From positions 7,952 to 71,951 of the forward strand of contig CAWHFJ010000013.1 in NCBI GenBank assembly GCA_963828495.1: DNA of 64,000 bases, read 5' to 3'. Made by a program: the position numbers and the translations under genes. Positions 3,419 to 39,848 of this stretch are shown in pieces; position 1 is the first letter of the stretch; each line of letters opens with the position of its first letter. The DNA is from Candidatus Omnitrophota bacterium. GTDB lineage: Bacteria > Omnitrophota > Gorgyraeia > Zapsychrales > Fredricksoniimonadaceae. The notes beneath the pieces were generated by a model. The model was not told where the DNA came from and searched no databases. It worked only from the letters and a program-made list of their open reading frames with translations.

Positions 3419-4042
3419 TTAACGCCTCTGTTTATAAATTTCGTTGAGCAATTCTTCGGACGTGGCTATCGATCCCGCCTGCTCTAACGCCTTCTTAATC
3501 ATATCTTCGGCTTCCGCTTTTTTATATTGCAACTGCAATAAAATATGCAGGGCCTCTTCTTGAATATCACGCGCATCCGAGGTGGCCTTAGAGACGGTTA
3601 CAGAATCGCGCATCAGGGTAAATTTCCCCATCTTCCCCTGTAGCTTCGCCACGATTTCTTTGGCCCTTTGCCCGCCTATCCCGGGAAGGGTTTTCAAATA
3701 GGGAATGTCCCCGCGATCAATGGCCTGAGCAATTTCACCGATAGATTTATTAAGCGCTTTGACCGCCGCCCGCGGACCTATGCCGGAAACCTTGATAAAT
3801 TCCAGAAAAAAATCACGCTCGATTTCATTCAAGAACCCAACCAAAACCGGCACCCCGCTGGAAGGGGCCATCTGATAATAATGATACGTGATTAAACGTA
3901 TATTGCCATCGCTATCTTGATTTTCTTTGACCCTCTGCAGGACGGAAATGGGAGTCAAGATTTCATAACTTAATCCCCCTGTCTCGAGGATCAAGGCCGA
4001 TTCCTGTTGCCGTATAATTTTGCCTTTAATGGCCGTAATCAT
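3419..4042 (-). CDS. ruvA: Holliday junction DNA helicase subunit RuvA
   Basis: MITAIKGKII start and HhH motifs (LIKVSGIGPRAA, LKTLPGIGGQRAKEI). The ATG at 4042 overlaps the ruvC TGA (ATGA overlap). The longer ORF start at 4087 is unlikely. Confidence 0.9.
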   Translation of the reverse strand: MITAIKGKIIRQQESALILETGGLSYEILTPISVLQRVKENQDSDGNIRLITYHYYQMAPSSGVPVLVGFLNEIERDFFLEFIKVSGIGPRAAVKALNKSIGEIAQAIDRGDIPYLKTLPGIGGQRAKEIVAKLQGKMGKFTLMRDSVTVSKATSDARDIQEEALHILLQLQYKKAEAEDMIKKALEQAGSIATSEELLNEIYKQRR

Positions 4043-4524
4043 ATCAATCGATACCGCATCATATGCGCATGCCCCAATGCCAGACACAGCGCATCGCTGG
4101 CATCTAATTTAAACCTTACCGATTTGATATTCAACAGTCTTTTGACAAATTCCTGAATCTGGGCCTTAGTGGCATTGCCGTTGCCGATGAGGGCCTTACG
4201 GACGCGTTTAACACTCTGTTCGACTAGGGCGACCTTCGCTTGGGCGACGCTCAAACAAATCACCCCGCGCACATGGCCTAAAATACTGGCGGTGGCGGGA
4301 TGTTTCGAATGGGCGTATATTTTTTCCAAAACCACTACATCGGGATTATGCACCTTGAGGATCGTCGTTATATGCTGGTGGATTTTCCAAAGCCTTTGCT
4401 CGAAGAGATCGCGCGTATTGGGCTCAATGGTGCCCGCCTCGAGGATTTTGATGCCGCCGCTCGCGATTTCGACGACACCATATCCCGTGGTGATGAGACC
4501 CGGATCGATGCCTAAAATGCGCAT
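4039..4524 (-). CDS. ruvC: Crossover junction endodeoxyribonuclease RuvC
   Basis: MRILGIDPGLITTGYGVVE and full-length RuvC-like sequence. Confidence 0.92.
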   Translation of the reverse strand: MRILGIDPGLITTGYGVVEIASGGIKILEAGTIEPNTRDLFEQRLWKIHQHITTILKVHNPDVVVLEKIYAHSKHPATASILGHVRGVICLSVAQAKVALVEQSVKRVRKALIGNGNATKAQIQEFVKRLLNIKSVRFKLDASDALCLALGHAHMMRYRLI

Positions 4525-8219: not shown

Positions 8220-8244
8220 TGTTTTGCAGCCTTGTTGAATTTGG

Positions 8245-8280
8245 TTCAAAAACCCGCCAGTGATAAGCTGGCGGGTTTTT
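8245..8280 (-). terminator. Rho-independent terminator after the CxxC-x17-CxxC gene
   Basis: A 10-bp stem pairs AACCCGCCAG (8251-8260) with CTGGCGGGTT (8268-8277) around a 7-nt loop, followed by a T-run on the minus strand. Confidence 0.7.
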
Positions 8281-8305
8281 CAAAGAACTGCAACACTCTT
8301 TTGAA

Positions 8306-8473
8306 TCAGCGATTGCTATCTTTGTGCTTTGCAAAACAATCCTTACAATAAACCGGACGGTCTTCTCTAGGCTTAAACGGAACTTCACATTCTTTTTTGC
8401 AGTCTGCACAAACAGCTTTGTGCATTTCCCGTGGGGCTCTGTCATACCCACCTCTACCACCTTGAAAACCCAT
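8306..8473 (-). CDS. Small CxxC-x17-CxxC zinc-ribbon protein (55 aa), absent from the ORF track
   Basis: My own translation is MGFQGGRGGYDRAPREMHKAVCADCKKECEVPFKPREDRPVYCKDCFAKHKDSNR. There are exactly 17 residues between CADC and CKDC. A strong SD (AAGGAG) lies 7 nt upstream and a terminator lies downstream. Confidence 0.75.
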   Translation of the reverse strand: MGFQGGRGGYDRAPREMHKAVCADCKKECEVPFKPREDRPVYCKDCFAKHKDSNR

Positions 8474-8523: not shown

Positions 8524-9459
8524 TCACTGATGCAACATTTTCTTAAGGGCATTCATCAGTTCAGGATTAACAGCGTACCCTAATTCTCCCGCTTTTTGTA
8601 AATTAATCCAGGCCTTATTGTATTCTTTTAACTGATAATAAACAATGGCTAGATTATTATACGCCTGTGCAAGCTTAGGATTTGTGGCAATGGCAATGAC
8701 CAGATCCCCCCTGGCTTCCGGAAGATTGCCCTGTTCAATATAAATACTGCTACGGTTAACATAAGCCTCTGCAAATTTAGGATCTATTTCAATAGCTTTG
8801 CTAAAGTCGGCAATGGCTTGAGAGAACTTGCCTTGTTTGTCATAACCAATGCCGCGGTTGTAATAAGCCTTGACAAGCGTAGGATTGATTTCAATGGCTT
8901 TATTTAAGTCCGCCATCGCCTGGGGTAAGTTCCCCTGTCTCTCCCAAGTAAGCCCACGGTTATGATAGGCATCCGCGAATTCAGGATCTATTTTAATGGC
9001 TTGGGTAAAATCAACTATGGCTTTGGGCAAATGACCTTGGTTGGCCAAAGTCAGGGCACGGTTGTAATAAATCCTTGCGTTTTGAGGATTTAATTCAATG
9101 GCCTTGTTATAATCAGCAATGGCGGCAGTGAAATTGCCTGCTTCGGCGTAGGCATTACCTCTCCCCTGATACGCCCCTATATCATGGGGATTTAAGGTAA
9201 TCGCTTGTGTAAAATCAGCAATCGCTTCAAGGTATTTGCCCTGTTTCTCCCAAGCCAAGCCTCGGTCATAATAGGCATCTGCAAGATTGGGACTCATGGC
9301 AACGGCTCTATTTAAGTCCTCCATGCTTGGTCTAGAGTTATTGTAAGCGGCCCCACGGTTATAATAATCTTGTGCTGTCTGCGCACAGACAGAGGAAATA
9401 TTCACACATAATATACCTGCTAAGATTAATATTGTGGATTTAAAACCGTTACTCTTCAT
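8524..9459 (-). CDS. Secreted TPR-repeat protein
   Basis: Signal peptide followed by about 8 consecutive 34-aa TPR units (A.AYYNRG..Y...G....A I.DF..AI.I.P). The ATG at 9459 overlaps the upstream TGA (ATGA). Confidence 0.8.
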   Translation of the reverse strand: MKSNGFKSTILILAGILCVNISSVCAQTAQDYYNRGAAYNNSRPSMEDLNRAVAMSPNLADAYYDRGLAWEKQGKYLEAIADFTQAITLNPHDIGAYQGRGNAYAEAGNFTAAIADYNKAIELNPQNARIYYNRALTLANQGHLPKAIVDFTQAIKIDPEFADAYHNRGLTWERQGNLPQAMADLNKAIEINPTLVKAYYNRGIGYDKQGKFSQAIADFSKAIEIDPKFAEAYVNRSSIYIEQGNLPEARGDLVIAIATNPKLAQAYNNLAIVYYQLKEYNKAWINLQKAGELGYAVNPELMNALKKMLHQ

Positions 9460-9791
9460 GGGGGGGAGCATTTTAGGTTTTGGATCCGGAAGGCGGTCCC
9501 ATGCTTGCTTTTTTTATGCTTCAGATGAATTTGATTAAGCGCATTAAGCCACTGCTTCATTTGGTCCGGAGTCAAAATTTTACTTAATTTTTGATTCTCT
9601 TCATCAATGATCGGTGTAATCTTTTTAGCTTGAGCCACGGTCAATTTTAATTGAGATTGAATATTCGAAACAATAGACTCGGTGTCAACGACCGGCTGTG
9701 TGGGTGTTTGTGGTGTTGGGGTCTGAGGCCAAGCAGGCATTGTGAAAAAAAAGCAGAGTGCCACGGCAGAGCATATTATTCTTCCCTTCAT
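9456..9791 (-). CDS. Small periplasmic LTxxQ-type protein (Spy/CpxP-like, short form)
   Basis: Signal peptide plus LKLTVAQAKKITPII and ILTPDQMKQW motifs. It is a paralogue of 20056..20448. Confidence 0.55.
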   Translation of the reverse strand: MKGRIICSAVALCFFFTMPAWPQTPTPQTPTQPVVDTESIVSNIQSQLKLTVAQAKKITPIIDEENQKLSKILTPDQMKQWLNALNQIHLKHKKSKHGTAFRIQNLKCSPP

Positions 9792-9840: not shown

Positions 9841-10215
9841 CTATTTTACTGCCGCCGGCGCGTATACAATCAATTCCCCTCTGAATATTAATAACGCATC
9901 GCGCCAATAATGTATTATTTCTGTGCTGGAATTGATAATAGCATCAGCTCCTTTTTTGCGGGCAATCTTTCTGGCTTGATTGGCCAACATTTCAGGAGTG
10001 ACCCCATAACTGGCATACCCTTCAATAGAAACTTTTCCAATCACATAATAAGGATTGGTGGCCGCAAGGGTCTGTGTCCGGGGATAAACATTCATGTTAT
10101 AATATTGATCTTTCGGCGGGAATCTCTGGTCGGTATAATAGACATACCGTGTACTGGTCGCACACCCCACCAAACCCAACACCAATAAACCCAACAACAA
10201 TATTCTTTTTTTCAT
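9841..10215 (-). CDS. Hypothetical lipoprotein
   Basis: Signal peptide with lipobox LLGLLVLGLVGC. No recognisable domain. Confidence 0.55.
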   Translation of the reverse strand: MKKRILLLGLLVLGLVGCATSTRYVYYTDQRFPPKDQYYNMNVYPRTQTLAATNPYYVIGKVSIEGYASYGVTPEMLANQARKIARKKGADAIINSSTEIIHYWRDALLIFRGELIVYAPAAVK

Positions 10216-10239: not shown

Positions 10240-10830
10240 CTATTTCCCATACATAAGTTTTAGCTGAGAAACTTTTGGGAATTCAGGATAAAACTCTCCT
10301 TGTGGCCCCACAAATCCCTTCCCTGATGGTTTGAGGATGACCGCCGTGTACCCTCCCTTGTCATTAGGGACATTAACAGTAATCGTATCTTCTATGTCAG
10401 CAGCCGCAGGAGTTGGGACTGTGACAGCGCTCTGAATGAAAACCCCTTGAGAGGTTACGACCGGTTGGGAAGCTACAACAGGTGGGGAAACCACAACAGG
10501 TTGGGAAGCCACGACCGGCGGCGTTACCGCTTGATAGCCGTAAGCCGTATAAATATAATACACCCCATTGTTAACATAATAAGTGACCCCATTGACAACA
10601 ACCGGTTGATAACTTGTGGAAGGTGAAACAAGCACATAGCCTGGTGCCGCGTAATAAGGATCCCCATAATAAGGGCCGTAATAAGGGCCGTAGTACCCGC
10701 CAGGCCATACCCCTAGATTAATACCAACATAGCCGTGCTCATGCCCATGCCACGCATAGGATGGCGTTGGCCTAATAATTAATAAACTTAGAAACAAAAA
10801 AATAAAAACCGCCTTTAATGAACTTCGCAT
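10240..10830 (-). CDS. Secreted Tyr/Gly/Pro-rich protein, paralogue 1
   Basis: Signal peptide, a GYYGPYYGPYYGDPYY stretch, VNGVTYYVNNGVYYIYTAYGY, PVVASQPVV tandem repeats, and a conserved C-terminus VNVPNDKGGY...GFVGPQGEFYPEFPKVSQLKLMYGK shared with 20490..21179. Confidence 0.6.
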   Translation of the reverse strand: MRSSLKAVFIFLFLSLLIIRPTPSYAWHGHEHGYVGINLGVWPGGYYGPYYGPYYGDPYYAAPGYVLVSPSTSYQPVVVNGVTYYVNNGVYYIYTAYGYQAVTPPVVASQPVVVSPPVVASQPVVTSQGVFIQSAVTVPTPAAADIEDTITVNVPNDKGGYTAVILKPSGKGFVGPQGEFYPEFPKVSQLKLMYGK

Positions 10831-10902
10831 AAAACCCTCCTTATTACTATTCTCTTTCCGTTAAATTTTAAGTCCTGTTAAGACAAGGGGTCAAATTATT
10901 TC

Positions 10903-11118
10903 TTAGTACTGATGATGTCTATGATGCCTATGATGATGCCTATGATGATGTCTATGGTGATGCCTATAATGATGCTTGCCATGACGATCCCCAAACCCAG
11001 GAGAATGATGCCATTGATACACATTCCCGCCATTGCCGGTATCCGCGTAAACCAAAGGTGGCGCTAACGCCAGCGCGGCGGCCATTATAAAAATTATAAT
11101 CTTAACTTTAGAAATCAT
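10903..11118 (-). CDS. Secreted His-rich peptide (71 aa)
   Basis: Signal peptide ending LVYA, then GKHHYRHHHRHHHRHHHRHHRHHQY encoded by a 12-nt (cat cat cat agR) tandem repeat. A good SD (AGGAGG) and an ECF-type promoter lie upstream. Confidence 0.6.
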   Translation of the reverse strand: MISKVKIIIFIMAAALALAPPLVYADTGNGGNVYQWHHSPGFGDRHGKHHYRHHHRHHHRHHHRHHRHHQY

Positions 11119-11149
11119 GTAAACCTCCTAATTTGTATGTCTCATTAAC

Positions 11150-11178
11150 TTAGACAACTATAGTTATTAAAAAGTTCC
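11150..11178 (-). promoter_or_regulatory. ECF sigma-type promoter P1 (GGAACTT-N16-GTCTAA)
   Basis: The minus strand reads TGGAACTTTTTAATAACTATAGTTGTCTAA. The -35 is at 11172-11178 and the -10 at 11150-11155. It lies 30 nt upstream of the His-rich peptide ATG. The same fixed positions occur at 22427..22455. Confidence 0.65.
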
Positions 11179-11183
11179 ATAAA

Positions 11184-12588
11184 TTATTTGGTAGGGGTCC
11201 ATCCTCCTCCGAGATATTCGATGAGCAGTACGCAGGCATTCATGCGTTCACCAAGAATGGTAACTGCGGTTTTTTCATTGTTTAACGCGATGGCTTGGGT
11301 AGTGATCACATCCAGCGCGCTGACTGTCCCTGCTTTATACTGATTTGTTTCAAGTGCGACCGCTTTCTGGGCGTCCTTGACGGCTTCATCCTGCACTTGG
11401 GCTTCTTGTTCCAAAATACGCAGCGCCGCTAAATTATCTTCCACCTGGCCAAACGCGGTCAACACCGTCTGACGGTAGCGGCCACATCCGCGTCATACAC
11501 AGCCCTGGCTTGGGCTGTCTGCGCCTGCCTTAACCCCGCGTCAAATATGGTTTCTGCCAATGCCGGCCCGACTGACCACAACGGATTAGGCGATGAAAAT
11601 ATCCGGGATAAATTTGAGCTTTCATAACTGCCTGAGGCGCTTAATGTCAGCGTCGGAAAATACGCGGATTCGGCAACACCAATAGGGCGTTGGCCGCCGC
11701 GACAGTCCTTTCCGCGGCGGCAATATCCGGCCTGCGCTCAAGAATCTCCGACGGTAAACCAGCAGGTACGGACGGCACCGTGGCCGGCAAGGTCAAAGGC
11801 GGAATAGAAAAATCCGAGGCTGGTTTGCCGATAAGCAAGGCGATAGCGTGCTCTAATTGCGAACGTTGAACGCCGATATCAATCGACTGGGCTTCAGTCG
11901 CCTCAAGCTGGGTTTTCGCCTGAATAACATCTGATTGGGCCGCCACACCGCTGGCATAACGGTTTTTTGTCAAATCAAAAAACTTTTGATAAATGGCATC
12001 CGTATCATCAATAAGCTTTTTTTGCGCATCCAGAGAACAAAGCTGAAAATAATCCTGGGCTAATTGGGCCTGGGCGCTTAATCGGGCATTTTCAAGGTCA
12101 GCCGCGCTCGCTTGGGCATTGGCACGGTTGGCTTCCATCGTTCGACGGATTTTCCCCCAGAGGTCTATTTCCCAGTTCACATCGGCACTTAACAAATTAT
12201 GCGAAACGGCTCTTTGCATTTGAAGAAGTGCCTCGCCGGTATGTGATCGTGTATAAGAAGCCTGTGGCACTCAGCGTCGGAAAAAAACCTGACTTGGCTG
12301 CTTGCACAGGCGCGTGCGCCTGGGCATACTGCGCCTGGGCTTGCGCTATATTCTGATTCGAAATGTTGACCTGCTCCTCCAGCGCGTCTAATCGAGGGTC
12401 ATTGAAAATTTTCCACCATGCTCCACGAATAATATCATCTTGAGGATGGGCTTTTTTCCAATCCCCCGATTCTTTATAAGCCGCCGGTATCTGCGTTGTC
12501 GGCTTGACATATTTAGGGCCGACCGCGCAGCCGGTTAAAAGCACGAGCAAACTATGATACTAAAAGCCATTTTTTTTACGCTGAACAT
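11184..12588 (-). pseudogene. Outer-membrane efflux factor (NodT/TolC family lipoprotein), broken by about 4 frameshifts
   Basis: Four fragments are visible. They are a signal peptide piece (MFSVKKMAFSIIV), LLTGCAVGPKYVKP... (12197..12550), 11647..12270, an unlisted frame across 11480-11690, and 11184..11465 (TAFGQVEDNLAAL...LGGGW). Confidence 0.75.
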
Positions 12589-12596
12589 ATTGTTAA

Positions 12597-12637
12597 CACC
12601 CCCACCTAACTTTCCCCATCAAGGGGAAGGAAAATTC
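12597..12637. repeat. GC-rich palindromic element (CACCCCCACCTAAC...CCCC-loop-GGGG type), copy 1
   Basis: CACCCCCACCTAACTTTCCCCATCAAGGGGAAGGAAAA is similar to the element at 21199..21236. Confidence 0.6.
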
Positions 12638-12747
12638 CGTTATGCCGTTTACATTGAAATTTCTTGCTTTTTTTAGATTCCCACCAAATCTTAAAACGCT
12701 CCATATAAAGATAAATGACCGGAGTGGTGTAAAGCGTAAGCATTTGA

Positions 12748-15732
12748 CTAAAAATAAGCCCGCCGATGATGGCAATACCCAACGGACGGCGCAAGTTCCG
12801 AGCCCATGCCCCAACCTAAGGCCAACGGCAGTGAGCCCAATATCGCCGACATGGTGGTCATCATAATAGGACGGAACCTCAAGAGACAAGCCTCATAAAT
12901 CGAATCCCGCGAATTTTTCCCTTCCAGACGCTCGGCGTCAAGGGCAAAGTCCACCATCATAATGCCATTCTTCTTGACCAGACCAATCAAAAGGATAACA
13001 CCAATGATCGCAATGATGCTTAATTCCGTGTGACAAATAAAAAGAGCCAGCAGCGCCCCCACACCGGCGGATGGCAAGGTCGAAAGAATGGTGATGGGAT
13101 GGATATAACTTTCATACAAAATACCCAACACAATATAAACGGCTGCCAGCGCCGTCAAGATCAATATCCCCTCATTGCTCAAAGAGGACTGAAAAGCCTG
13201 GGCCGTACCCTGGAAACTGCCGTGGATGGTCGAGGGCAGCATGATCTTATTCATCGCTGCATCAACGGCCTTGACCGCATCCCCCAGAGCTACCCCCAAG
13301 GGTAGATTAAACGAGAATGTAATTGCCGGAAATTGGCCTTGATGGGCAACGGCCAGCGACGTAGTCGATGATGTATAGTGCGCAAATGCGCTTAAAGGGA
13401 CTAATGTCCCATTTGATGACGCCACATAGATTTGCTTTAATGTTTCCGGACGCTGCCAGAATTTGGGCGCGACTTCCATAACAACATAATACTGATTTAA
13501 TTGTTTATATGTAGTCGACACTTCCCTCTGGCCAAAAGCATCGTAGAGAGTGCTATCTATTTCCTGGGCAGTTATACCCAGACGTGCCGCGGTTTTGCGG
13601 TCAATGACAAGATCAGTCTCCTGACCATTGTTTTGTTTATCGCTGCTTAAATCAGCTATTTGGGGCAATTTGCGTAACGCGGCTTCCACCCGCGGTGACC
13701 ATGTTGTCAGATCAGCCAGGTGATCGGCCTGAAGCGTATATTGATATTGCGCATTGCCCATCCTCCCTCCGATAGTCAAGTCCTGCACGGCTGTAAGATA
13801 GGCCGGCGCGCCCGGCACACTGATTAATTTTTTACGCAGACGTGCTATCACCTGGTCGGTGGTGACCTTGCGCACTTCTAAAGGCTTGAGGGCTATGAAC
13901 ATCCTAGCCGTATTTCTGGTAGAGCCGCCGCCGGTGAAAGCCGCTAGCGTATCCACGGCAGGGTCTTTCAAGATGATCTTGACCACTGCCCTTAATTTCT
14001 TCTCCATCGATTGAAACGATATATCTTGAGCGGCCTGAATACTCCCGCCCAAACGCCCGGTATCCTGCTGAGGGAAAAATCCTTTAGGGACAATAGTAAA
14101 CATAACAACACTACTCACAAGGGCGGCTAACGTCAAGGTCAACATGATCCCCTGATGCCGCAATGCCCATGACAAGCTCTTATCATAACTGCGGTGCATC
14201 CAGTCAAATACCCCTTCAGTAGCGTTATACAGGCGGCCATGGGTTTCTTCTTTTTTAGATTTTAAAAGGATCGCGCACATCATGGGGGTCGTCGTCAAAG
14301 AAACCACCATGGAGATCAAAATGGCCACCGACAAGGTCAGGGCAAATTCACGAAACAGTCGCCCCAAAACCCCTCCCATCAATAAGATGGGGATAAATAC
14401 AGCGACAAGGGAAATACTCATTGTAAGAATAGTAAATCCTATCTCTTGGGCCCCCTTAATGGCTGCCTCTTTAGGGGCCATGCCTTTCTCAATATAACGC
14501 GTAATGTTTTCCACTACCACGATAGCATCGTCAACGACAAACCCGGTGGCGACGGTCAACGCCATGAGTGAGAGATTATCCAAACTAAAATGCAAGAGAT
14601 ACATCGCTCCGAAGGTGCTGATGATCGACACAGGGACCACAATACTCGGAATAATGGTAGACCGGACATTGCGTAAAAAAAGGAATACCACTAAAATCAC
14701 CAGTAACCCTGAGATCACCACCGTACGCTGGGCCTCTTTCATGGAGGCACGGATGGTGGGCGAGCGGTCCATGACAACCGAAAGATCGATCGCCGGAGAA
14801 ATAGCTGCCCGCAGTTGCGGGAATAAATTAAGCACAGCATCCACTGTCTTGATCACATTTGCCCCCGGCTGGCGAAATAGTATCACAGGGATGCCTTGCT
14901 TGCCGTTGATCAAGGCCGCATTACGAAGGTCCGCCACCGAATCCTGCACATCAGCTACGTCACTTAACCGTACCGGACGGCCGTTGGAGTAAGCCACGAT
15001 CAGAGGGCGATAATCTTTGGCCTCATAAAGTTGATCATTAGTTTGGATTTCCCAAGTCTTGCTGCCATTGGCGAGCTGCCCTTTGGGACGGTCCGCATTG
15101 GTACTGCTGATGGCGGTACGCACCACGTCGAGGCCTATCCCGTATTTGTTTAACGCCGTGGGATTAAGCTCCACCCTTACTGCCTGCGAAGCCCCTCCGC
15201 CGATGATGACCTGACCAATGCCATCAACCTGGGATAATTTTTGCGCCAGAATGCTGTCCGCTATATCATAGATAGCCGCTTTGGTCATGGTATCGGATGT
15301 CAGAGACAAAATAAGGATCGGCGCTTCAGCCGGATTGACCTTGCGGTAGGATGGATGGATCGGAAGGTCCGCCGGTAAAAAACTCTGTGCCGCGTTGATC
15401 GCCGCCTGAACATCGCGCGCGGCCCCGTTAATATCACGGCTTAAATCAAACTGCAAAGTAATGTTGGTAGACCCCAGACCACTGCTAGAAGTCATTTCAG
15501 TAACCCCCGCGATATGGGCCAGCTGACGCTCCAATGGTGCCGCGACTGAAGAAGCCATGGTCTCAGGGCTTGCTCCGGGTAAACCCGCAGATACGCTGAT
15601 CGTGGGATAATCCATCTGCGGCAAGGTGGATACCGGTAATAAACCAACCGCCACCAGCCCGGCGAGAACCAACCCCACCGTCAAGAGGGTCGTTGCCACA
15701 GGTCTTTGGATGAATGGTGTTGAAATACTCAT
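12748..15732 (-). CDS. mdtC: RND multidrug efflux permease, MdtC-like (HAE-1)
   Basis: It is the second of two tandem RND paralogues after the MFP gene. TM4 motif is [21 protein letters not shown]. One frameshift near 12790 detaches the last ~60 aa, which continue in ORF 12606..12794 ([27 protein letters not shown]). Confidence 0.85.
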
Positions 15733-18700
15733 TTTGAAGTGCCTACACCTAAGCGTTTGCCGACCCGATCAAACCACAAATAAATAACCGGAGTCGTATA
15801 AAGAGTGAGAATTTGACTGAAAATAAGCCCGCCGATAATGGTAATCCCCAATGGCTGCCTCAGTTCAGCCCCCATGCCCCCACAAAAAGCCAGCGGCACC
15901 GCTCCCAGTATAGCGGACATCGTCGTCATCATGATCGGCCTAAACCTTAAAAGGCAAGCCTGATAAATCGCGTCCACCGGAGCTTTGCCTTCCTCACGCT
16001 CGGCATCCAAGGCAAAGTCCACCATCATGATACCGTTTTTCTTGACGATGCCGATTAAAAGGATGATACCGATGAGCGCGATCACGCTTAAATCCGTACG
16101 GAAAATCAAAAGCGACAAAATGGCCCCCACACCTGCCGACGGCAGCGTCGATAAAATAGTGATGGGATGAATATAGCTTTCATACAAAACCCCCAGCACG
16201 ATATACACCGTAATCAAAGCCGCCAGAATCAAAAGGGGCTCATTGCTCAAAGACGATTGGAAAGCCTGGGCCGTACCCTGAAACTCGCCGTTAATACTGT
16301 CGGGCAATCCTATCGAACGCGTAGTCGACTCAATGGCCTTGACCGCATCCCCCAAGGACGCCCCCGGCGCCAAATTAAATGATAATGTCACCGCCGGGAA
16401 TTGCCCCAGATGGCTGATAATCAGAGGCCCTGTCGTTTCCTTAAATTTGGTCAGCACATCCAACGGCACCTGTGCGCTATTGCTGCCTCGCACATAAAGA
16501 TTATGTAACTTATCAGGATCATTTTTGAAATCAGGTTTTACCTCGAGGATAACCCGGTACTGGTTAAGCTGAGTGAATATCGTTGACACGATCCGCTGGC
16601 CATAAGCGCTATAAAGGGTATTATCAATGACCGACGGAGTTACTCCCATCCGGGAGGCGGTGGCGCGGTCAATGGTAATGGATGCCTGCAAAGCTTTGTC
16701 CTGCTGATCGCTGCCAACGTCAACTAACTGCGGCAAGCGACTTAAAGCCGCAACCACCTTAGGCGCCCAGGTATTCAGCTCATCGGCATTAGGGTCTTCC
16801 AGGGTATACTGATATTGAGTGCGGCTGACCGTATCATCAACGGTCAAATCCTGTACCGGCTGCATGTAGAGTTTGACCCCACGAACATCCGCCAATTTCT
16901 TCTGCAAACGGCGGATAATCTCACTGGCAGAAATTTTGCGTTCTTCAATAGGCTTGAGGTTGATCAAAATCCTGCCGCTGTTAAGAGTGGTATTAGTGCC
17001 ATCCACGCCGATAAACGTGGAAAGACTTTCAACCGCCGGGTCTTTGAGGATAACCGTGGCCAATTGCTGCTGACGCCGTGCCATCGCCGGGAAAGAAACC
17101 GATTGAGACGCTTCGGAAATACCCTGGATAATACCGGTGTCCTGGATGGGGAAAAACCCTTTGGGCGCAAAAATGTACAGTCCCACCGTTAAAACAAGCG
17201 TTGCTAAAGCGACAGTTAAGGTCCATTTCTGATGCCGCAACACCCATTGCAGGGATTGGCCGTATTGCTTAATAACCTTGTTAAACATTTCTTCAGAAGT
17301 ATGGTAAAACTTTCCTTGTTTGCCCGGCGGTATATGTTTAAGTAATTTGGCACACATCATCGGCGTTAACGTCAACGATACGATCGCTGAAATGACAATG
17401 GTTACGCCCAGGGTCACGGCGAACTCGCGAAAGAGCCTACCCACCACATCCCCCATAAAAAGCAGAGGGATCAGTACCGCGATCAGGGAAATACTCAAAG
17501 AAAGGATGGTAAAAGCCACCTGCCCCGAACCTTTGAGCGCGGCTTGCAGGGGCTCTTCTCCGGCTTCTATATATCTGGCAATATTTTCAATCATGACAAT
17601 CGCGTCATCCACCACAAAACCCGTCGCGATGGTCAAAGCCATTAAAGACAAATTGTTCAGGCTGAAGCCCAACAGATACATGGCCCCAAAAGTACCGACG
17701 AGCGATACCGGGACCGCAATGCTGGGAATGATCGTCGCCGCCAAGGTACGCAAAAACAGGAACATGACCATAACGACCAACGCCACCGCCAACATCAGTT
17801 CAAACTGCACATCCTTGACCGAGGAGCGGATAGTGGTCGTTCTGTCGGTTAATATGGAAACCTGTACAGAAGCCGGCAGGGAACTTTCCAACTGCGGCAG
17901 CATCTTCTTGATGCCGTCAACAACCTGGATCACGTTAAAGCCGGGCTGCCGTTGGATGTTAATAATGACCGCAGGAGAAGTACTCATCCATGCCGCCTGC
18001 TTGACATTCTCAGCGTCATCAATGACTTGGGCCACATCAGACAATAATACCGGTGCGCCCTTTTGATAGGCGACAATGAGAGACCGGTAGTCTTGGCTGG
18101 ATTTCAGTTGATCATTGGCGTTGATGATGGAGGACTGCCTTGAGCCGTCAAAACTTCCCTTGGCTTGATTGACATTGGCAGAAGAGATCGCTGTGCGCAA
18201 ATCTTCCAAAGTCAAACCATAAGAAGCCAATGACGTGGGGTTGGCTTGAATCCTGACGGCAGGTCTCTGACCGCCGCTGATACTGACAAGGCCTACACCT
18301 GATAGTTGAGAAATTTTCTGGGCGAGACGAGTGTCGGCCAAATCTTCAATCTGAGGCAGAGGCAGAGTTTTTGAAGTCAAGGCCAAGGTCAAAATCGGCG
18401 CGTCGGCGGGGTTGACCTTGCTGTAAACCGGAGGATTGGGCAGATCTGCCGGCAATAAATTAGCCCCCGCATTAAGGGCCGCCTGGACTTCCTGTTCGGC
18501 GATATCAATGCTCAAGTCTAAACTGAATTGAAGTGTGATGACTGAACTACCGCCGGAACTGGTCGAGCGCATCTGCTTAAGACCGGGCATCTGCCCGAAT
18601 TGACGTTCCAGGGGGGCGGTAATGGCTGTGGACATAACATCAGGAGAGGCCCCGGGATAAAAAGTAACGACTTGAATGACCGGGTAATCAACCTGCGGTA

Positions 18701-18809
18701 AAGCGGAGATGGGAAGTTGAAAATAAGCGACACCGCCGGCCAGAAGGATGGCCACCATCAATAAGACAGTCGCCACCGGCCGCATAATAAATATGCGGGA
18801 AGGATTCAT
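15729..18809 (-). CDS. mdtB: RND multidrug efflux permease, MdtB-like (HAE-1)
   Basis: Intact 1026-aa ORF with [21 protein letters not shown]. It has 4-nt overlaps with both neighbours. Confidence 0.88.
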
Positions 18810-20044
18810 GCGCCATCTCCACCAGATGATGGGCCTGAGGGAGATTTTTTATGTTGATAAGCTGCGGACAAGGTGACCTTGCTGCCTTCTTTTAATTTGT
18901 CAGCTCCTTCGACCACAACCACCTCATCCTCTGACAATCCATCCTTAATGGCCACGTTATCTGTCTGGGTTGCCCCCAGCGTGACCGGGCGCACAGTCAC
19001 CGTCTTATCATCTTTGACCACGAAAACAAAATTTCCTTGAGGCCCTTGCTGGATCGCGGCGACCGGAATAATCACAGCCCCTTGGTCGACATCTACAAGC
19101 AGATGAATATTAACGAACTGGTTGGGAAACAAGGCATTATCTGTGTTTTCAAAAATCGCTTTGAGCTTAACTGTACCTGTGGTGGGATCGATCTGGCTGT
19201 CAACAGCAAGTAAATAGCCCATCGCTATCTTTTTAGTTTCCTCACGATCATAAGCCTCTGCCGTCAATTTTTCTCCGGCTTGATATTTACTAAGTACTTG
19301 CGGAAGATTGTCCTCGGGAATAGCAAATACGACTGTGATCGGCTGCAGCTTGGTGATCACGGCCAATCCGGTGGTATCACTAGGCGAAACAATATTACCG
19401 GCATCCTCCAGGCGTAACCCGATTTGCCCGCTGATGGGGGCCGTGACATGCGCATAAGTCAGCTGCAATTTGGCATTGTTGACTTGGGCCTCATCAACCT
19501 TCACTGTCCCTTCATACTGGTGGACCAAAGCATCCTGGGTATCCAATTGTTGTTTGGGTATGGAGTCTTGGGACCACAAGGCCTGATAGCGCGCCAAATC
19601 TAACTTGGCATCAGTGAGCAAGGACTTATCCTTGGCTAATTGCCCCTGGGCTTGGGACAACTGAATCTCAAATGGCCGGGTATCAATGAGGGCCAACAGA
19701 TCGCCCTGCTTGACAATTTGGCCTTCCTTGAATAACACTTGCATCAACTGCCCGCCCACCAGGTACTTGACCGTGACCGTATTAAGGGCCGTCACAGATC
19801 CCAAAGCATTGATATAAATGTCAATATCGCCTTTTTTTGCCGTCGCTGTCACAATAGGCGAATCGCTGGGCCCCCGCCCACCCTTGACAGAGCTGCTTCC
19901 GGCACTTAAAGAGGGGTTGCTAGAGGCTTGATGCTTATGCCAAAAAAAGTAGGCCCCAAGGCCCACCACTAAAACTATCACCACAAACCATTTCCACCGA
20001 GAAGGCCGACGGACCTTGGGCAAAGAACTTTTTTCAACCGCCAT
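18806..20044 (-). CDS. mdtA: RND periplasmic adaptor (membrane fusion protein), MdtA-like
   Basis: N-terminal TM anchor, then lipoyl/beta-barrel MFP sequence ([16 protein letters not shown]...AKLDLARY). Confidence 0.85.
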
Positions 20045-20055
20045 TAATCCTCCCT

Positions 20056-20448
20056 TTATTCTCCAGTACTAGAAGCACTCTCTGCCCCACCCGTTGCATA
20101 TCTATGCCGCGCATGGTTTTGCATATTGCTCCATTGACTCATTTGATCTTGGCTGAGAATTTGAGACAACTCTTGATTCTCATCTTCTCTCAACTGTTCC
20201 AACTGTCCATGCATGTCCCCCTTATCCAGGGTCCCATCCTTCAGGCTTTGCCGAAGTTCCTGGCGTTTGGAGATATATTTCTCAATGATCGGTGTAATGG
20301 CCGTCACTTGGTCCGGGGTCAAATTTAATTGAGATCGCAGCTTCGCGACCACATCCGCCGTTGTTTTAGACCCCTGTCCCTGTGCATAAACAGGCATCGT
20401 TACAAAAAGTAACGCTACGCATACACCGACCATTATTTTCACCTTCAT
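20056..20448 (-). CDS. Small periplasmic LTxxQ-type protein (Spy/CpxP-like, short form)
   Basis: Signal peptide plus [15 protein letters not shown] and [10 protein letters not shown] motifs. It is a paralogue of 9456..9791. Confidence 0.55.
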
Positions 20449-20489: not shown

Positions 20490-21179
20490 TTATTTTCCAT
20501 ACATCACTTTAAGTTGCGAAACTTTAGGAAATTCAGAATAGAACTCGCCTTGTGGTCCCACAAAACCATTGCCTGATCTCCTAATGACCACAGGCATATA
20601 CCCGCCACTATTATTAGGGACGTTAACCGTAAACGTATCCTGCATAACAGGAGCTGGTGCCGGTGGGGCTGGCGGAGCCACCACTGTTACCGCCGGCTGT
20701 GCCATCACAACAGGCTGTTCCATCACCACAGGCTGGGGCATCACAACAGGCTGCTCCACCACCCGATAACCATGACGGGTGTACACATAATAGATCCCGT
20801 CATTGAAATAATAGGTCATGCCATTGATAACAACCGGTTGAAAATCAGACGGAATGGCAGTCACCACAGCTCCTGCAGGAGGAGGCACGATCACATAATC
20901 TCCGTAGCCTGCATAGCGGTAGTACACCCCATCATAATAATAGTACCTCATCCCCCCTACCCAAACCGTAAAGCACCCGTCGGGCAGATAGTGCATGTGC
21001 AGACCATAATGAGGATGATCATGATAACGGTAAAAACGACGATCATCATCGTGATGATACCCCGGACCGCCGACACTAACGCCTATGCCCCAATCCGCGT
21101 AGGATAATCGGGGGGCGGCAAATAAAGCCAATACAAAAAGTCCGATAGATAATTTCGTTACACTGAGTTTGTTTAACAT
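20490..21179 (-). CDS. Secreted Tyr/Gly/Pro-rich protein, paralogue 2
   Basis: Preferred start is MLNKLSVTKLSIGLFVLALFAAP (ATG at 21179). It has INGMTYYFNDGIYYVYTRHGY, QPVVM repeats, and the C-terminus VNVPNNSGGY...GFVGPQGEFYSEFPKVSQLKVMYGK. The longer ORF start reads through a palindromic repeat. Confidence 0.6.
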   Translation of the reverse strand: MLNKLSVTKLSIGLFVLALFAAPRLSYADWGIGVSVGGPGYHHDDDRRFYRYHDHPHYGLHMHYLPDGCFTVWVGGMRYYYYDGVYYRYAGYGDYVIVPPPAGAVVTAIPSDFQPVVINGMTYYFNDGIYYVYTRHGYRVVEQPVVMPQPVVMEQPVVMAQPAVTVVAPPAPPAPAPVMQDTFTVNVPNNSGGYMPVVIRRSGNGFVGPQGEFYSEFPKVSQLKVMYGK

Positions 21180-21198
21180 ACGCCTTTCTCCTTTGTTA

Positions 21199-21236
21199 TC
21201 ACCCCCACCTAACCTCCCCCATTCAGGGGGAGGAAT
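21199..21236. repeat. GC-rich palindromic element (CACCCCCACCTAAC type), copy 2
   Basis: CACCCCCACCTAACCTCCCCCATTCAGGGGGAGGAATA, with stem CCTCCCCC/GGGGGAGG. Confidence 0.6.
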
Positions 21237-21266
21237 AGCGATGGGCACTTAAACTATTAAAATTGA

Positions 21267-21833
21267 TTACTCTCCAAATTCAGGAGGATGTCCCTTATCC
21301 CCTTTGTTGCCCCAATCTTTATGCTCTTCTCCATGTTTACCCCAAGCGCATGGGGGGCCGAATTTCTTGTGCTCTTGTTTCATTAATTTTCTTTCTTTTT
21401 TCAAGGCCATGAAACCTGCAAATTGCTCAGGCGTCATAATTTTCTTCATTTCCAGAACGGAATTTAATTGATTATCCGCCATCTGTGCTTGAATAGTTTT
21501 CAATTGATTCTGAAGATCATTGATCTTATTCATGTCCGGGGTGGCCTTCACGATTTCTTCATTAAAGGCTTCCCTGTTTGTCTTGATGGCCTCAAAAGTA
21601 CTTTTCATCGTGTCCCGCTGTTTTTGCTTAATCGCTTTTAGCTGCTTTTGCTGGTCTTCAGTCAAGTTAAGGACTCGGGCCATCAAATGATGCTTCCCAT
21701 GATGACATTCCTGCCATCCCTTGAAAGAATCAGTTCCAGCCGCAAAATTACCGCCATTATCCGCGTAAACGATTGACGAAGATAAAACCATGGCCGCTAC
21801 CATTAACCCCGTTAATTTAGCTTTTGTTCTCAT
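21267..21833 (-). CDS. Spy/CpxP family periplasmic chaperone-like protein
   Basis: Signal peptide plus two LTxxQ-type motifs (LNLTEDQQKQL and IMTPEQFAGF) in a helical Lys/Gln-rich protein. Both ends are His-rich. Confidence 0.7.
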   Translation of the reverse strand: MRTKAKLTGLMVAAMVLSSSIVYADNGGNFAAGTDSFKGWQECHHGKHHLMARVLNLTEDQQKQLKAIKQKQRDTMKSTFEAIKTNREAFNEEIVKATPDMNKINDLQNQLKTIQAQMADNQLNSVLEMKKIMTPEQFAGFMALKKERKLMKQEHKKFGPPCAWGKHGEEHKDWGNKGDKGHPPEFGE

Positions 21834-21888: not shown

Positions 21889-22401
21889 CTACAAAAAATA
21901 TTTCTCAATAGGTGTCCCCAAATCTGCACTCTCACTGCCAGAGACACCTCCTGAAACATCTGTCAGCAAACTCAAATATTCGACTTGTCCCACTTCATCA
22001 ATCTTAACCGCTGGATTGTTCATCATAAATTGAGGCAGTATGCCAATCATAAGAATTAAAGTGACAACGGATGCCAGAGCAAATACCGGTCTAGGGAAAA
22101 TGGGAACAGCTACCAATTCCCTAATAGAACTCAACCGTTGGCAAATTTCCGCTATTAAGTTTGTTTTTGCCTCTTGCCGGGCCCTAATCTCTGCTCTAAC
22201 CTGGTCCCAAATAACGACCGGGACCTCTTGCTTTTCCACATTAATAAAAGGCTTAACAACCCTTTCTTGGGCAATACTGGCAAACTCTTTACAATGCTGA
22301 CAATGCGCCAAATGCTCTTCAATGGCGCACTTATGCTTGTCGTCTAATTGGCCGTCCATATAATCCGTGAGGATGATCTCTTGAATTTTTCGGCAGTTCA
22401 T
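21889..22401 (-). CDS. Anti-sigma factor (zf-HC2 type) with one TM helix
   Basis: N-terminal HLAHCQHCKEF (H-x3-C-x2-C), a central TM segment (VFALASVVTLILMIGILP) and a periplasmic tail. No ECF sigma gene is adjacent. Confidence 0.75.
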   Translation of the reverse strand: MNCRKIQEIILTDYMDGQLDDKHKCAIEEHLAHCQHCKEFASIAQERVVKPFINVEKQEVPVVIWDQVRAEIRARQEAKTNLIAEICQRLSSIRELVAVPIFPRPVFALASVVTLILMIGILPQFMMNNPAVKIDEVGQVEYLSLLTDVSGGVSGSESADLGTPIEKYFL

Positions 22402-22426
22402 TTTTGGTTAACCCCCTTTCACCTAT

Positions 22427-22455
22427 TTAGACAATCAACGGGGTCAAAAAGTTCC
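22427..22455 (-). promoter_or_regulatory. ECF sigma-type promoter P2 (GGAACTT-N16-GTCTAA)
   Basis: The minus strand reads TGGAACTTTTTGACCCCGTTGATTGTCTAA. The -35 is at 22449-22455 and the -10 at 22427-22432. It lies 25 nt upstream of the anti-sigma ATG. Confidence 0.7.
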
Positions 22456-22456
22456 A

Positions 22457-23881
22457 CTATTTTTCCCAACCTCCACCCAGCGCTTTATATAAAACAACCA
22501 ACGCCTGTAGCTCATTGCGCTGGGCTTGGGCCAATTCAAGTTGGGCAGAATAATATCTCGTATTACTATCCAGCACTTCCAGATAACTGGATGTCCCGCC
22601 CTTATAGCGCAATTCAGACAATCGCGCCGCGTCCTTGGCCGATTGAGTCAACATTTCCTGTTGCGTCCTAAATTCCTGATTTTTGCGGTAGGCCACCAGC
22701 GCGTCGGAGACTTCCCTAAATGCCTGTTGTATCGTCTTACGGTAAAAATGCAAGGCTTCCTGCTGTTGGGCCTTAGCGAATTTGACCCCGGCCCGGATCC
22801 GTCCGGCGGTAAAGATCGGCTGTGTCAGGGTGCCGACAATGTCCCAAAGTCCGCTGGGTCCGCTAAAAAGTTTGCTTAGCGCGGCACTTTGATACCCGCC
22901 GGTTGCGGTCAAGCTGATATCCGGGAAATACGCCCCCTGGGCCACGCCAATCTGCGCGTTATACGCAACCAATTGCTGCTCGGCTTGCTGAATATCCGGC
23001 CTGCGTTCCAGCAAAGAGGAAGGAAGTCCGGCAGGAACCACCGGTGCATGCGGCTGTTGGGTCAAGACCCGTCCGCGTTCAACACTACCCGGGTTATTCC
23101 CCAAAAGAATACTGATTAAATTTTCCTGTTGCTCGATCCTGCGTTCCAGGTCAGGCACACTTTTGGCTGCGGTGTACACTAATTGCTCGGCTTGGCGTAC
23201 ATCTAACATCGACGCAGAACCATGGTCAGCCAAATGCTTGATAAGCCCTAAGGAATCCTGCTGGGAGGCCAACGTGCGTTTGGAAATTTCTAACTCCATG
23301 TCTAATTCACGCAGTTGGAAATACGCGCTACTCACGTCCGCAATCAAGGAAGTAATCACCGCCTGACGGGCCCAGTGGCTCGCCAACAGATTGGCCCTGG
23401 AAACTTCAATCATCCGGCGATATTTTCCCCAAAAATCAAGGTCCCATGTCACCGTTCCAGTAAACGAATAGGCGCCCAGCTCATACGGATTGGATGAAGG
23501 CATCCTTTCAATCCGCTCTCCGATGATCCCAGTCCCTGCAGTGATAGTCGGCAGTTCATAACTACTCGTTATCGTCAACTGTGCTTGTGCTTCGAGAATG
23601 CGGTCTGCCGCGATACGCACGTCATAATTTTGCTGCAAGGCCGTATGGATCAACTCCTGCAGTTTGCTGTCTTGAAAAACTTCCCCCCATTTCTGCTCAC
23701 CGATAGAAGCACTGCCTATTGATGAATCAGGAGATATCCCCCGATAGGCTCCCGGGACATCAACGCTAGGTTTCTTATAATTAGGGCCAATCGCGCAACC
23801 GGCCAATAAGGCGCATAATAAAACAAGAGATTGCTTCGCCCATCGGGCTCGCAATGACACTGCTGTTATACCTCTGTTCAT
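22457..23881 (-). CDS. Outer-membrane efflux factor (NodT/TolC family lipoprotein)
   Basis: Preferred start is MNRGITAV (ATG at 23881, ATGA overlap with the RND stop). Lipobox is LLAGCAIGPNYKKP. The sequence is a full-length OMF ending ALGGGWEK. Confidence 0.85.
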   Translation of the reverse strand: MNRGITAVSLRARWAKQSLVLLCALLAGCAIGPNYKKPSVDVPGAYRGISPDSSIGSASIGEQKWGEVFQDSKLQELIHTALQQNYDVRIAADRILEAQAQLTITSSYELPTITAGTGIIGERIERMPSSNPYELGAYSFTGTVTWDLDFWGKYRRMIEVSRANLLASHWARQAVITSLIADVSSAYFQLRELDMELEISKRTLASQQDSLGLIKHLADHGSASMLDVRQAEQLVYTAAKSVPDLERRIEQQENLISILLGNNPGSVERGRVLTQQPHAPVVPAGLPSSLLERRPDIQQAEQQLVAYNAQIGVAQGAYFPDISLTATGGYQSAALSKLFSGPSGLWDIVGTLTQPIFTAGRIRAGVKFAKAQQQEALHFYRKTIQQAFREVSDALVAYRKNQEFRTQQEMLTQSAKDAARLSELRYKGGTSSYLEVLDSNTRYYSAQLELAQAQRNELQALVVLYKALGGGWEK

Positions 23882-26800: not shown

Positions 26801-27010
26801 ATTCATGGATTGCTCTATGGGTGTTGCTACCGACTGCTCGATGGTGATTGCGTCGGCCCCCGTATATGCTGTGCTGACAAAAATCTGCGGCGGGACAATC
26901 TGAGGGAATTGGGCCAGAGGCAACCCCTGTATCGCCACAAGACCGGCGATAACAGTCAAAATGGCGATGACCATCGCCACGATAGGGCGGTTAATAAAGA
27001 ATTTTGACAT
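23878..27010 (-). pseudogene. RND efflux permease (AcrB-like, HAE-1) broken by about 3 frameshifts
   Basis: Fragments are 25973..27010 (MSKFFINRPIVAMVIAIL), 25494..25967 ([18 protein letters not shown]), an unlisted frame at 25381-25530, and 23878..25380. Confidence 0.8.
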
Positions 27011-28253: not shown

Positions 28254-28709
28254 CTATGCCCCCCTATTTTCATAAGAAAAACTTTCCACAATTTTCTCCA
28301 GGATCCTTAAATAATCTTCCCTTTCTTTGGCGCTGACCCGGCTGAAAACCTGCATAAACGCTTTTCGCCGCCGCTGGTTGTCCTCCAGCAGAATTTTCTT
28401 GCCCTTGGCACTTAACGCCACGAAAACCGTACGCCTGTCTTCCCTGCCACGTTGGCGTATGACAAACCCTGTCTTGACCAATCTATCAATAATGGTAGTT
28501 ACGGCGGAAAATTTGACCTTGAGGGCGCCCACCAAGGTATTCATCTTGCAAGGGCCGCACGCGGACAAACATTCCAAAACCAAGAGCTGGGTGGTGGTAA
28601 TCCCTCTGCGGATTAAAGAATGGTTCTCATAGCAGGCAAGCTCAACCTTTAATTTGGGGACAAGTTCAACCATGCGGCTGCCAAACTCATCCAATCTTAA
28701 TTGCCCCAT
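28254..28709 (-). CDS. MarR family transcriptional regulator
   Basis: Winged-helix segment TTTQLLVLECL...MNTLVGALKVKFSAVTTIIDRLVKTGFVIRQRGREDRRTVFVALSAKG. Confidence 0.85.
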   Translation of the reverse strand: MGQLRLDEFGSRMVELVPKLKVELACYENHSLIRRGITTTQLLVLECLSACGPCKMNTLVGALKVKFSAVTTIIDRLVKTGFVIRQRGREDRRTVFVALSAKGKKILLEDNQRRRKAFMQVFSRVSAKEREDYLRILEKIVESFSYENRGA

Positions 28710-32419: not shown

Positions 32420-32442
32420 ACCTTTACCTACATTAATTTCTC

Positions 32443-37275: not shown

Positions 37276-37417
37276 GCCTTTACCTGCCACAATATTTTTA
37301 TATAACGCTATAATTATATAAAATTGGAGGAAAAAAGCCACAGGAATTTCGATAATTTTCATCGGGAAATAAATGGTGACATCTACCAAATTATTGTATA
37401 CTTAAATAGGGTGAGAT

Positions 37418-39067: not shown

Positions 39068-39848
39068 TGAAGTAACCCCTTTAAAGAATCGACCAGTTGA
39101 TCAACGACATGCTGCCCCTCGCCTTCAAAAATTTTTCCCTTGGGTTTGGGCGGGGGTGTGAAAATCTTCAACACCCAGGTCGGCGAACCTTTCAATCCAA
39201 TACGGTTTTCTTCTGCACCGATATCCGCCGCTTTCCAGATCTGTATGACCGCACTTTTAGCTTTCATCTTGCCTTTTAAAGAGGGCAGCCTGGGAGTATT
39301 GATTTCCTTGACCACCGTCATAAGACAAGGAAGCTTTGTCTCAACGACTTCATATCCATATTCTGTCATACGTTCGAGCCGTAATGGTCCCGTCTTTGAT
39401 ATCTTCGATCTTGCGCACATTAATGATTTGGGGAATATCAAGGGTCGCCGGCGATCCCGGGCCCGACCTGGGCCGTGTCCCCGTCAATGGCCTGTTTCCC
39501 GCAAAAAATCATATCATAATCTTTGATCTTCTCGATCGCTTTAGACAGGGTATAACTGGTGGCCAGGGTGTCTGAACCGGCAAATGCGCGATCACTGACT
39601 AAGATCGCCTCATCACAACCCAAAGAAATGGCTTCTCTTAAAGCTGATTCTGCCTGCGGGGGCCCCATGGTGAGAACTATGACTTTTCCGCCGAGTTTTT
39701 CTTTAAGGCGCAAGCCCTCTTCAATGGCATACATATCAAAAGGATTGATCATGGACTTGACACCTTCTCTGACAAGGTTATTGGTGGCCGGATCAATCTT
39801 GACTTCAGAGGTATCCGGCACTTGTTTTACACAGACAATGATGTTCAT
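39064..39848 (-). pseudogene. etfB: Electron transfer flavoprotein beta subunit, two frameshifts (near 39440 and near 39375)
   Basis: [16 protein letters not shown]...CGKQAIDGDTAQVGPGIA, then a third frame LDIPQIINVRKIEDIKDGTITA, then ...MTEYGYEVVETKLPCLMTVVKEINTPRLPSLKGKMKAK (39064..39441). Confidence 0.8.

Follow-up and report, generated by a model that had tools for sequence, protein, structure and literature searches.

Gene content of the locus

The window, as the whole 64 kb stretch of DNA analyzed here is called, carries two copies of a short bipartite element on its minus strand, each at the head of a gene module. The names that homologs carry assign the organism to Omnitrophota. The upstream copy, site 2 (22427-22456), is preceded on the minus strand by a MarR gene (28254-28709), an adaptor gene, a frameshifted RND pump gene and the OMF2 gene, in that order, as assigned with Pfam and NCBIfam. 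Farther upstream of this MarR-efflux operon, the minus strand of 28786-37389 holds ORFs of 407 aa (Peptidase_S74, endosialidase chaperone), 815 aa and 1648 aa. The first gene behind site 2 (21889-22401, minus strand) encodes a 170-aa zf-HC2 anti-sigma factor (PF13490, 29.5 bits against a cut-off of 22.2). Its N-terminal zinc-binding domain carries the HxxxCxxC motif of class I ZAS proteins (HLAHCQHC) and is followed by one transmembrane helix and a short periplasmic tail of ~40 aa. The NCBIfam models give weak anti-sigma and ChrR matches, and no RseA family match was found in Pfam or NCBIfam. The gene is an orphan: in homologous loci it adjoins an ECF sigma gene, whereas here the gene upstream is OMF2. 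This corrects an earlier reading of the module beginning at 22401, since the window is without a sigma gene and the anti-sigma itself stands first.

Three minus-strand genes complete this module. A 188-aa periplasmic protein of the LTXXQ/Metal_resist type (21267-21833; PF13801 and PF07813) resembles Spy, CpxP and ZraP, with matches to the NCBIfam CpxP and Spy models that stay below the cut-offs. It is followed by a second DUF6515 paralog (20490-21248; Pfam, E 1.9e-16) and by a small LTXXQ protein of 130 aa (20056-20448), whose Pfam LTXXQ match is weak and below the cut-off (E 5e-4). Between the two modules lies an RND efflux operon of the MdtABC type (11184-20044, minus strand) that encodes an MdtA/MuxA adaptor (NCBIfam, 431.8 bits; cut-off 391), two RND pumps and OMF1. 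In the window, frameshifts interrupt OMF1 and the C-terminal part of the second pump, both of which relatives have intact. OMF1, two RND pump genes and an acyl-CoA dehydrogenase gene are split in this way (11184-12550, 12606-15732, 23878-27010 and 39845-40998). L008, L009 and L010 have intact orthologs, and a second assembly of the organism (L001) shows its breaks at other places; the pattern suggests indel errors of long-read sequencing in the window sequence and not pseudogenes.

The downstream copy of the element, site 1 (11150-11179, minus strand), heads a unit of six ORFs on the same strand. The first encodes a secreted His/Arg-rich peptide of 71 aa (10903-11118), in which a signal peptide is followed by HHYRHHHRHHH and further residues. 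The ORF is conserved in L134 and L135 with an in-frame repeat indel, and no family match was found for it in Pfam or NCBIfam. Next comes a Tyr/Gly/Pro-rich protein of 196 aa with a signal peptide (10240-10830), which belongs to DUF6515 (PF20125). For this Tyr-rich protein, an AF2 model with a mean pLDDT of 66 and a pTM of 0.32 gave no PDB match at E <= 0.001 in Foldseek (best E 0.34); the structure prediction and the fold search offered no functional lead. A full-text literature search found no functional study of DUF6515. In some relatives (L026, 4496-5137; L184, ~3850-4432) the DUF6515 protein itself begins with a His/Gly-rich N-terminal part, unlike the window, where a separate His-rich peptide ORF stands ahead of the DUF6515 gene.

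The unit continues with a 124-aa lipoprotein (9841-10215, lipobox LVGC), whose homologs follow DUF6515 in about 30 loci, and a secreted protein of 111 aa with LTxxQ-like strings (9456-9791), a homolog of which occupies the same place in L012 and L135. The label "LTxxQ" given earlier to this 111-aa protein finds no backing in Pfam or NCBIfam, neither of which returned a match. A TPR protein of 315 aa (8524-9471; Pfam TPR_1, E 1e-61), syntenic in L012, L134, L135 and L137, comes next. The original prediction had listed the Tyr-rich protein, the lipoprotein, the small protein and the TPR protein as co-directional genes downstream of site 1, which they are, but had stopped short of the end of the unit. 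The last gene encodes a treble-clef zinc-ribbon protein of 55 aa (8306-8473; PF23477, E 3e-20), of a family also found behind the TPR gene in L012, and the unit closes at about 8250 with an intrinsic terminator consisting of a hairpin and a U-run (8244-8288, minus strand; RNA fold dG -23.2 kcal/mol, z -4.57).

Two exact copies of a bipartite motif

A scan of the window for TGGAACTTTTT-N11-TTGTCTAA with up to three mismatches returned two matches only, both on the minus strand and both without a mismatch (11150-11179 and 22427-22456). On that strand site 1 reads TGGAACTTTTTAATAACTATAGTTGTCTAA (11179-11150) and site 2 reads TGGAACTTTTTGACCCCGTTGATTGTCTAA (22456-22427). The two sites share 19 fixed positions at identical spacing; by inspection, their 11-nt spacers are unrelated, with 3 of 11 bases identical. 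Dinucleotide-preserving shuffles put the chance expectation at 0.02 matches, and none of 100 shuffles contained two or more. A relaxed scan of the window (up to four mismatches, spacers of 11-13 nt) produced no further convincing sites. A GGAAC-N18-GTCT string at 8379-8405 on the plus strand, a third match, lies antisense within the zinc-ribbon gene and was regarded as a chance occurrence.

Both sites are tightly packed between genes. The 30-mer of site 1 begins 4 nt past the OMF1 stop codon (TAA, 11184-11186), and 31 nt separate its last base from the ATG of the His-rich peptide gene at 11118. Site 2 directly adjoins the OMF2 stop codon (TAG, 22457-22459), and its last base is 25 nt from the ATG of the anti-sigma gene at 22401. 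The original prediction had described two elements with 19 fixed positions and equal spacing, which the exact matches bear out, and its chance estimate of 0.01-0.02 agrees with the shuffles. Its starting coordinates, 11150 and 22427, stand as well; the ends were off by one, as the 30-mer reaches 11179 and 22456. The distances it gave for site 1, 6 nt after the OMF1 stop and 30 nt before the ATG, have to be replaced by the measured 4 and 31 nt.

Anatomy of the probable promoters

The two boxes have the form of a promoter of the sigma-E type. The -35 element is GGAACTTTT at 11178-11170 in site 1 and at 22455-22447 in site 2, and includes the GGAAC(TT) core. The -10 element is TTGTCTAA at 11157-11150 and 22434-22427, respectively, and includes the GTC core; in site 1 the -10 hexamer GTCTAA occupies 11155-11150. 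In E. coli the -35 consensus of sigma-E is likewise GGAACTTTT and the -10 consensus is (T/C)GGTCAAAA (Rhodius et al. 2006, PMC1312014), elements that have been summarized as "GGAACTT" and "GTC" (PMC6648896). The distance from GGAACTT to TCAAA in E. coli is 15-19 nt with 16 preferred, the discriminator is 5/6 nt long and the promoters have an A/T-rich UP region (PMC1312014). The window sites therefore share with E. coli an identical -35 element, a -10 element of the GTC..AA type and a spacer within the 15-19 nt range (GGAACTT-N17-TCTAA at both sites), and differ in having 17 nt instead of 16.

The motif has the orientation of the downstream gene, and in the window the distance from its -10 element to the ATG is 25-31 nt. 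By the 5/6-nt discriminator rule (PMC1312014), transcription is predicted to start at about 11143-11145 for site 1 and at about 22420-22421 for site 2. A consensus of 51 non-redundant sites, built from the main spacing class to which the window sites belong, adds an A/T-rich stretch upstream, again as in E. coli, and a G.TGAAGG block 4-10 nt past the -10 element. In the many loci whose leaders are very short, this block corresponds to the start site together with the Shine-Dalgarno sequence.

Several features count against reading the sites as ECF promoters. The 64 kb of the window contain no ECF sigma gene. Site 1 is without the G.TGAAGG block found after the -10 element in most sites, and with 17 nt the spacer exceeds the 16 nt preferred in E. 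coli. Each site lies close behind the stop codon of a co-directional gene, and no terminator intervenes, so that read-through alone could express the downstream genes. The frameshifts in the window also mean that single-base errors are possible.

Conservation in relatives

The arrangement GGAACTTTT-N12-(A)TTGTCTAA is found upstream of zf-HC2 orthologs whose protein identity is 89% (L008, L009), 65% (L010), 54% (L012) and 41% (L013). Both boxes are intact even in L012 and L013, which have a different gene upstream and surrounding DNA that cannot be aligned. The conservation of site 2 is a classical phylogenetic footprint.

For site 1, 80 metagenome-contig loci with homologs of the Tyr-rich DUF6515 protein were collected, of which 62 were testable. 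In the syntenic locus L134 the OMF1 stop codon is followed by TTTA, TGGAACTTTTGGGTAACTATTTTTGTCTAA, a 31-nt leader and the His-rich ORF. The site in L135 is identical to site 1 of the window, and L137 has kept the site with the His-rich ORF absent. More broadly, a motif with up to two mismatches lies within 450 nt upstream of DUF6515 in 33 of the 62 testable loci; in most of the others it is found farther upstream, before the preceding zf-HC2 or LTXXQ genes. The 51 matches in the ~388 kb of DUF6515 homolog loci are without exception on the strand of the gene, against zero on the other strand. The spacing is that of the window in 48 of these and one nucleotide shorter in the remaining 3. Downstream, the order DUF6515-lipoprotein recurs in about 30 loci. 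In L012, whose anti-sigma is 54% identical, LTXXQ, DUF6515, the lipoprotein, the homolog of the 111-aa protein and the TPR protein follow a second copy of the motif just past the stop codon of an efflux gene. One copy thus precedes each of two modules there, and the layout of two modules with two promoters is conserved. The claim that site 1 is a second ECF-type promoter, and that both modules belong to one putative regulon, is in this way supported by phylogenetic footprinting together with the motif scans.

A sigma-70-type promoter before the DUF6515 gene

The DUF6515 gene of the site 1 unit has another promoter-like element immediately upstream. TTGACC-N18-TAAAAT (10865-10894, minus strand) agrees with the sigma-70 consensus at 10 of 12 positions, and TTTGACCCCTTGTCTTAA at 10895-10878 on the minus strand is part of it. 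In L134, L137, L139 and L141 the stretch from the ECF site to the DUF6515 start contains this element as well, there with a spacer of 17 nt. Among the 62 loci, 19 have such an element within 160 nt upstream of DUF6515, compared with four matches in the other 708 kb scanned. The hexamers resemble TTGACA and TATAAT, have a spacing within 16-18 nt and are conserved before the gene. A degenerate relative of the ECF site had been proposed at about 10870-10890; an element does exist there, but it is not a decayed ECF site, being a separately conserved promoter of the sigma-70 type. With both promoter types upstream, the DUF6515 gene has tandem promoters, one ECF-type and one sigma-70-type, and in the lineage to which the window and L134 belong the His-rich ORF sits between the two. 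In many cases the spacer of the sigma-70-type promoter is a palindrome (CCTCTT-N5-AAGAGG), a hint of an operator, perhaps for a repressor.

The sigma factor associated with the motif

Neither Pfam on 30 ORFs nor tblastn with RpoE and SigW detected an ECF sigma gene in the 64 kb window, and a database search with the sigma profile A2 did not find the cognate sigma of this genome. Four candidates for it (P0107, P0125, P0089 and P0094), chosen because their source patterns resembled that of the window's anti-sigma, were dismissed, all coming from other organisms. When one genome per species was scanned with GGAACTTTT-N12-TTGTCTAA, at least 120 loci were obtained; the window's own genome was not among the matches listed. 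Within these listed matches the first ORF behind the motif is an ECF sigma in at least 12 loci, a DUF6515 protein in at least 9 and an LTXXQ/Metal_resist protein in at least 6; OEP, a DegP-like protease, DUF4139 and VIT-VWA proteins are also found. Nine of the 12 motif-preceded sigmas among the matches listed share 49-55% identity; they come from Omnitrophota, Nitrospiraceae and Planctomycetia, and behind each of the nine lies an anti-sigma homologous to the 170-aa protein of the window (E 1e-11 to 1e-27). The canonical cassette, as seen in L040, consists of the motif, the sigma gene, the anti-sigma gene, a second motif that overlaps the end of the anti-sigma gene, and then LTXXQ.

Since these loci had been selected by the motif itself, the sigma was examined again in loci picked by protein identity alone. 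In all four (L214, L223, L225 and L228) the motif stands 15-16 nt before the sigma ATG with no or one mismatch. A second copy precedes the LTXXQ gene in three of the four, and a third precedes DUF6515 in one. To judge by its arrangement, this pattern is the signature of an autoregulated ECF sigma with its regulon, and the motif ahead of the sigma gene is observed in relatives in at least 12 loci among the scan matches listed as well as in 4 of 4 identity-picked loci. The sigma group comprises at least 2140 database proteins at E <= 1e-40. Its L040 member scores 99.3 bits against the RpoE equivalog TIGR02939, far from the cut-off of 236.15, and passes only the ECF superfamily model TIGR02937. 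The system would work like sigma-E but is placed outside the RpoE-RseA family, as the sigma passes the general ECF model only and the anti-sigma is of the zf-HC2 type.

Interpretation and alternative explanations

What has been observed directly is the motif with its conservation and strand specificity, and its link to sigma/anti-sigma cassettes in relatives. Taken together, these observations make it very probable that the two elements serve as promoters for a sigma-E-type sigma factor of the ECF class (group IV). A different account would accept the ECF ancestry and treat the sites as relics: the sigma has been excised from the cassette, the sites are silent or weakly used, and the genes are expressed by read-through and from the sigma-70-type promoter of the DUF6515 gene. 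The missing sigma in the window, the orphan anti-sigma directly behind its promoter and the sigma-70-type promoter itself fit such a history. So do L008 and L010, where ~75 nt separate promoter and anti-sigma. The inserts there (L008 ~9900-10000, with DIKETAQILN; L010 ~9910-10000, with SIEETAQIQK) resemble the helix-turn-helix of sigma region 4.2 and may be the remnant of a deleted sigma gene, although they are too short for statistics. Against decay, both boxes are perfect in this sigma-less arrangement at 89% and 65% anti-sigma identity while spacers and flanks diverge, which argues for continued selection. An anti-sigma without a sigma would moreover have no role, and yet its ORF is intact and conserved. 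Disused promoters are accordingly an improbable explanation of the two sites.

Bipartite boxes with a variable spacer can also be the binding sites of a DNA-binding transcription factor, and a MarR gene does lie upstream of site 2. An operator of this kind is harder still to reconcile with the observations, as the two boxes are neither direct nor inverted repeats of each other, the strand specificity is strict (51 versus 0), the motif keeps a fixed short distance to start codons, its boxes equal the -35 and -10 consensus of sigma-E, and it precedes ECF sigma genes themselves. Least probable of all is that the resemblance arose by chance, or that the identity is a passive consequence of a duplicated OMF 3' end with its downstream segment. 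Duplication has in its favor that both sites lie behind paralogous OMF genes, whose products end in LGGGW, and that both lead modules with DUF6515 and LTXXQ paralogs. Passive identity would hardly leave unrelated spacers, however, and the motif also precedes homologous genes that have no OMF context (L013, L139, L141 and L223); chance is opposed by the expectation of 0.02 matches. Both readings are thus already at odds with the comparative data.

Returning to promoters read by an ECF sigma, a mechanism may be outlined. The sigma would belong to the large orthologous group of Omnitrophota, Nitrospirota and Planctomycetota, whose usual cassette is promoter-sigma-zf-HC2 anti-sigma-promoter-LTXXQ chaperone. 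Envelope stress would inactivate the membrane anti-sigma; the stress is possibly metal-related, as the Metal_resist/LTXXQ proteins, the His-rich peptide and the efflux pumps suggest. The freed sigma would then direct RNA polymerase to sites 1 and 2. The perfect retention of both boxes without an adjacent sigma, in relatives of 89% and 65% identity, argues that the cognate sigma is encoded elsewhere in the genome. With the sigma gene of the cassette absent from the locus, site 2 would drive the anti-sigma directly, as a negative feedback. The LTXXQ, DUF6515 and LTXXQ genes would come next on the transcript, and read-through would probably extend it to the MdtABC-OMF1 pump. Site 1 would act as an internal promoter for a short-leader mRNA extending from the His-rich peptide to the zinc-ribbon gene and ending at the terminator near 8250, and would raise the His-rich module independently of the long efflux operon upstream. 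Read-through from the OMF genes probably adds basal expression, and the sigma-70-type promoter at 10894-10865 would be a second, presumably basal, input to DUF6515 and all later genes.

Relation to known stress systems

Beyond the promoter sequence, the system resembles sigma-E of E. coli in the probable autoregulation of the sigma gene, which in relatives has the motif ahead of it, and in a regulon of envelope proteins, a periplasmic chaperone and outer-membrane factors. It differs in that a zf-HC2 anti-sigma takes the place of RseA, in that the sigma is not adjacent to the anti-sigma in this genome, and in the regulon members, which here are LTXXQ proteins, DUF6515, the His-rich peptide and efflux components instead of the E. 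coli core regulon. With the ZAS pairs SigW-RsiW of B. subtilis and SigE-ChrR of R. sphaeroides it shares an anti-sigma with an N-terminal HxxxCxxC motif and a single transmembrane helix and, in relatives, the co-transcription of anti-sigma and sigma from an autoregulated promoter. The anti-sigma of the window is unlike those of the ZAS pairs in its very short periplasmic part (~40 aa) and its orphan gene. The promoter consensus is sigma-E-like, in contrast to SigW-type promoters with TGAAAC...CGTA. Spy, CpxP and ZraP are controlled by the two-component systems CpxAR, BaeSR and ZraSR. The 188-aa LTXXQ/Metal_resist protein is similar to them as a directly controlled output of an envelope-stress regulator and dissimilar in that the control is exerted through an ECF sigma promoter and in that its matches stay under the NCBIfam equivalog cut-offs.

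In the literature library covered, no published work on ECF regulation in the uncultured Omnitrophota was found. With a promoter code that is legible in the sequence and agrees with the E. coli sigma-E consensus, regulons can be predicted from metagenome-assembled genomes. The code also places DUF6515, the small LTXXQ proteins and the secreted His-rich peptide in a functional setting for the first time: a response to envelope or metal stress under ECF control, with ties to RND and MacB efflux. As a mechanism this is textbook; the gain is in annotation and in testable regulon membership, with no new principle. What the comparative evidence supports is an ECF sigma-E-type promoter and its regulon in an uncultured phylum, a regulatory signal that can be regarded as solid but fairly ordinary. 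A bolder reading can be offered only tentatively. The sigma/zf-HC2/LTXXQ cassette with DUF6515 could constitute an undescribed and widespread envelope/metal-stress regulon of Omnitrophota, Nitrospirota and Planctomycetota that uses a nearly exact copy of the E. coli sigma-E code. Here the sigma would have been cut from the cassette, with the autoregulatory promoter feeding only the anti-sigma, and a sigma encoded at another locus, or a different ECF sigma that captured the regulon, would control its genes, among them that of a newly inserted secreted His-rich peptide. If true, this would be a natural rewiring of the sigma/anti-sigma feedback.

The scan across species also touched other lineages. 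In about 40 of the matches listed, from Ignavibacteriota, Melioribacteraceae and Bacteroidota (L021, 2776-2804; L022; L030; L037), the motif is embedded in the 3' end of recO with varying spacers, and a DegP/HtrA protease gene follows ~140-200 nt downstream. These matches were at first viewed as coding-sequence noise, a view given up as the DegP/HtrA gene is just downstream; the recO-embedded motif is possibly a sigma-E-type promoter for degP. In Nitrospirota and Desulfobacterota, again among the matches listed, the motif is found before genes for DUF4139 proteins and VIT-VWA-TonB_C proteins (L025, L048, L062, L066 and L069, ~485 aa; L068, L072, L120 and L125, ~780 aa). These DUF4139 and VIT-VWA-TonB_C genes may be lineage-specific components of a regulon of this type.
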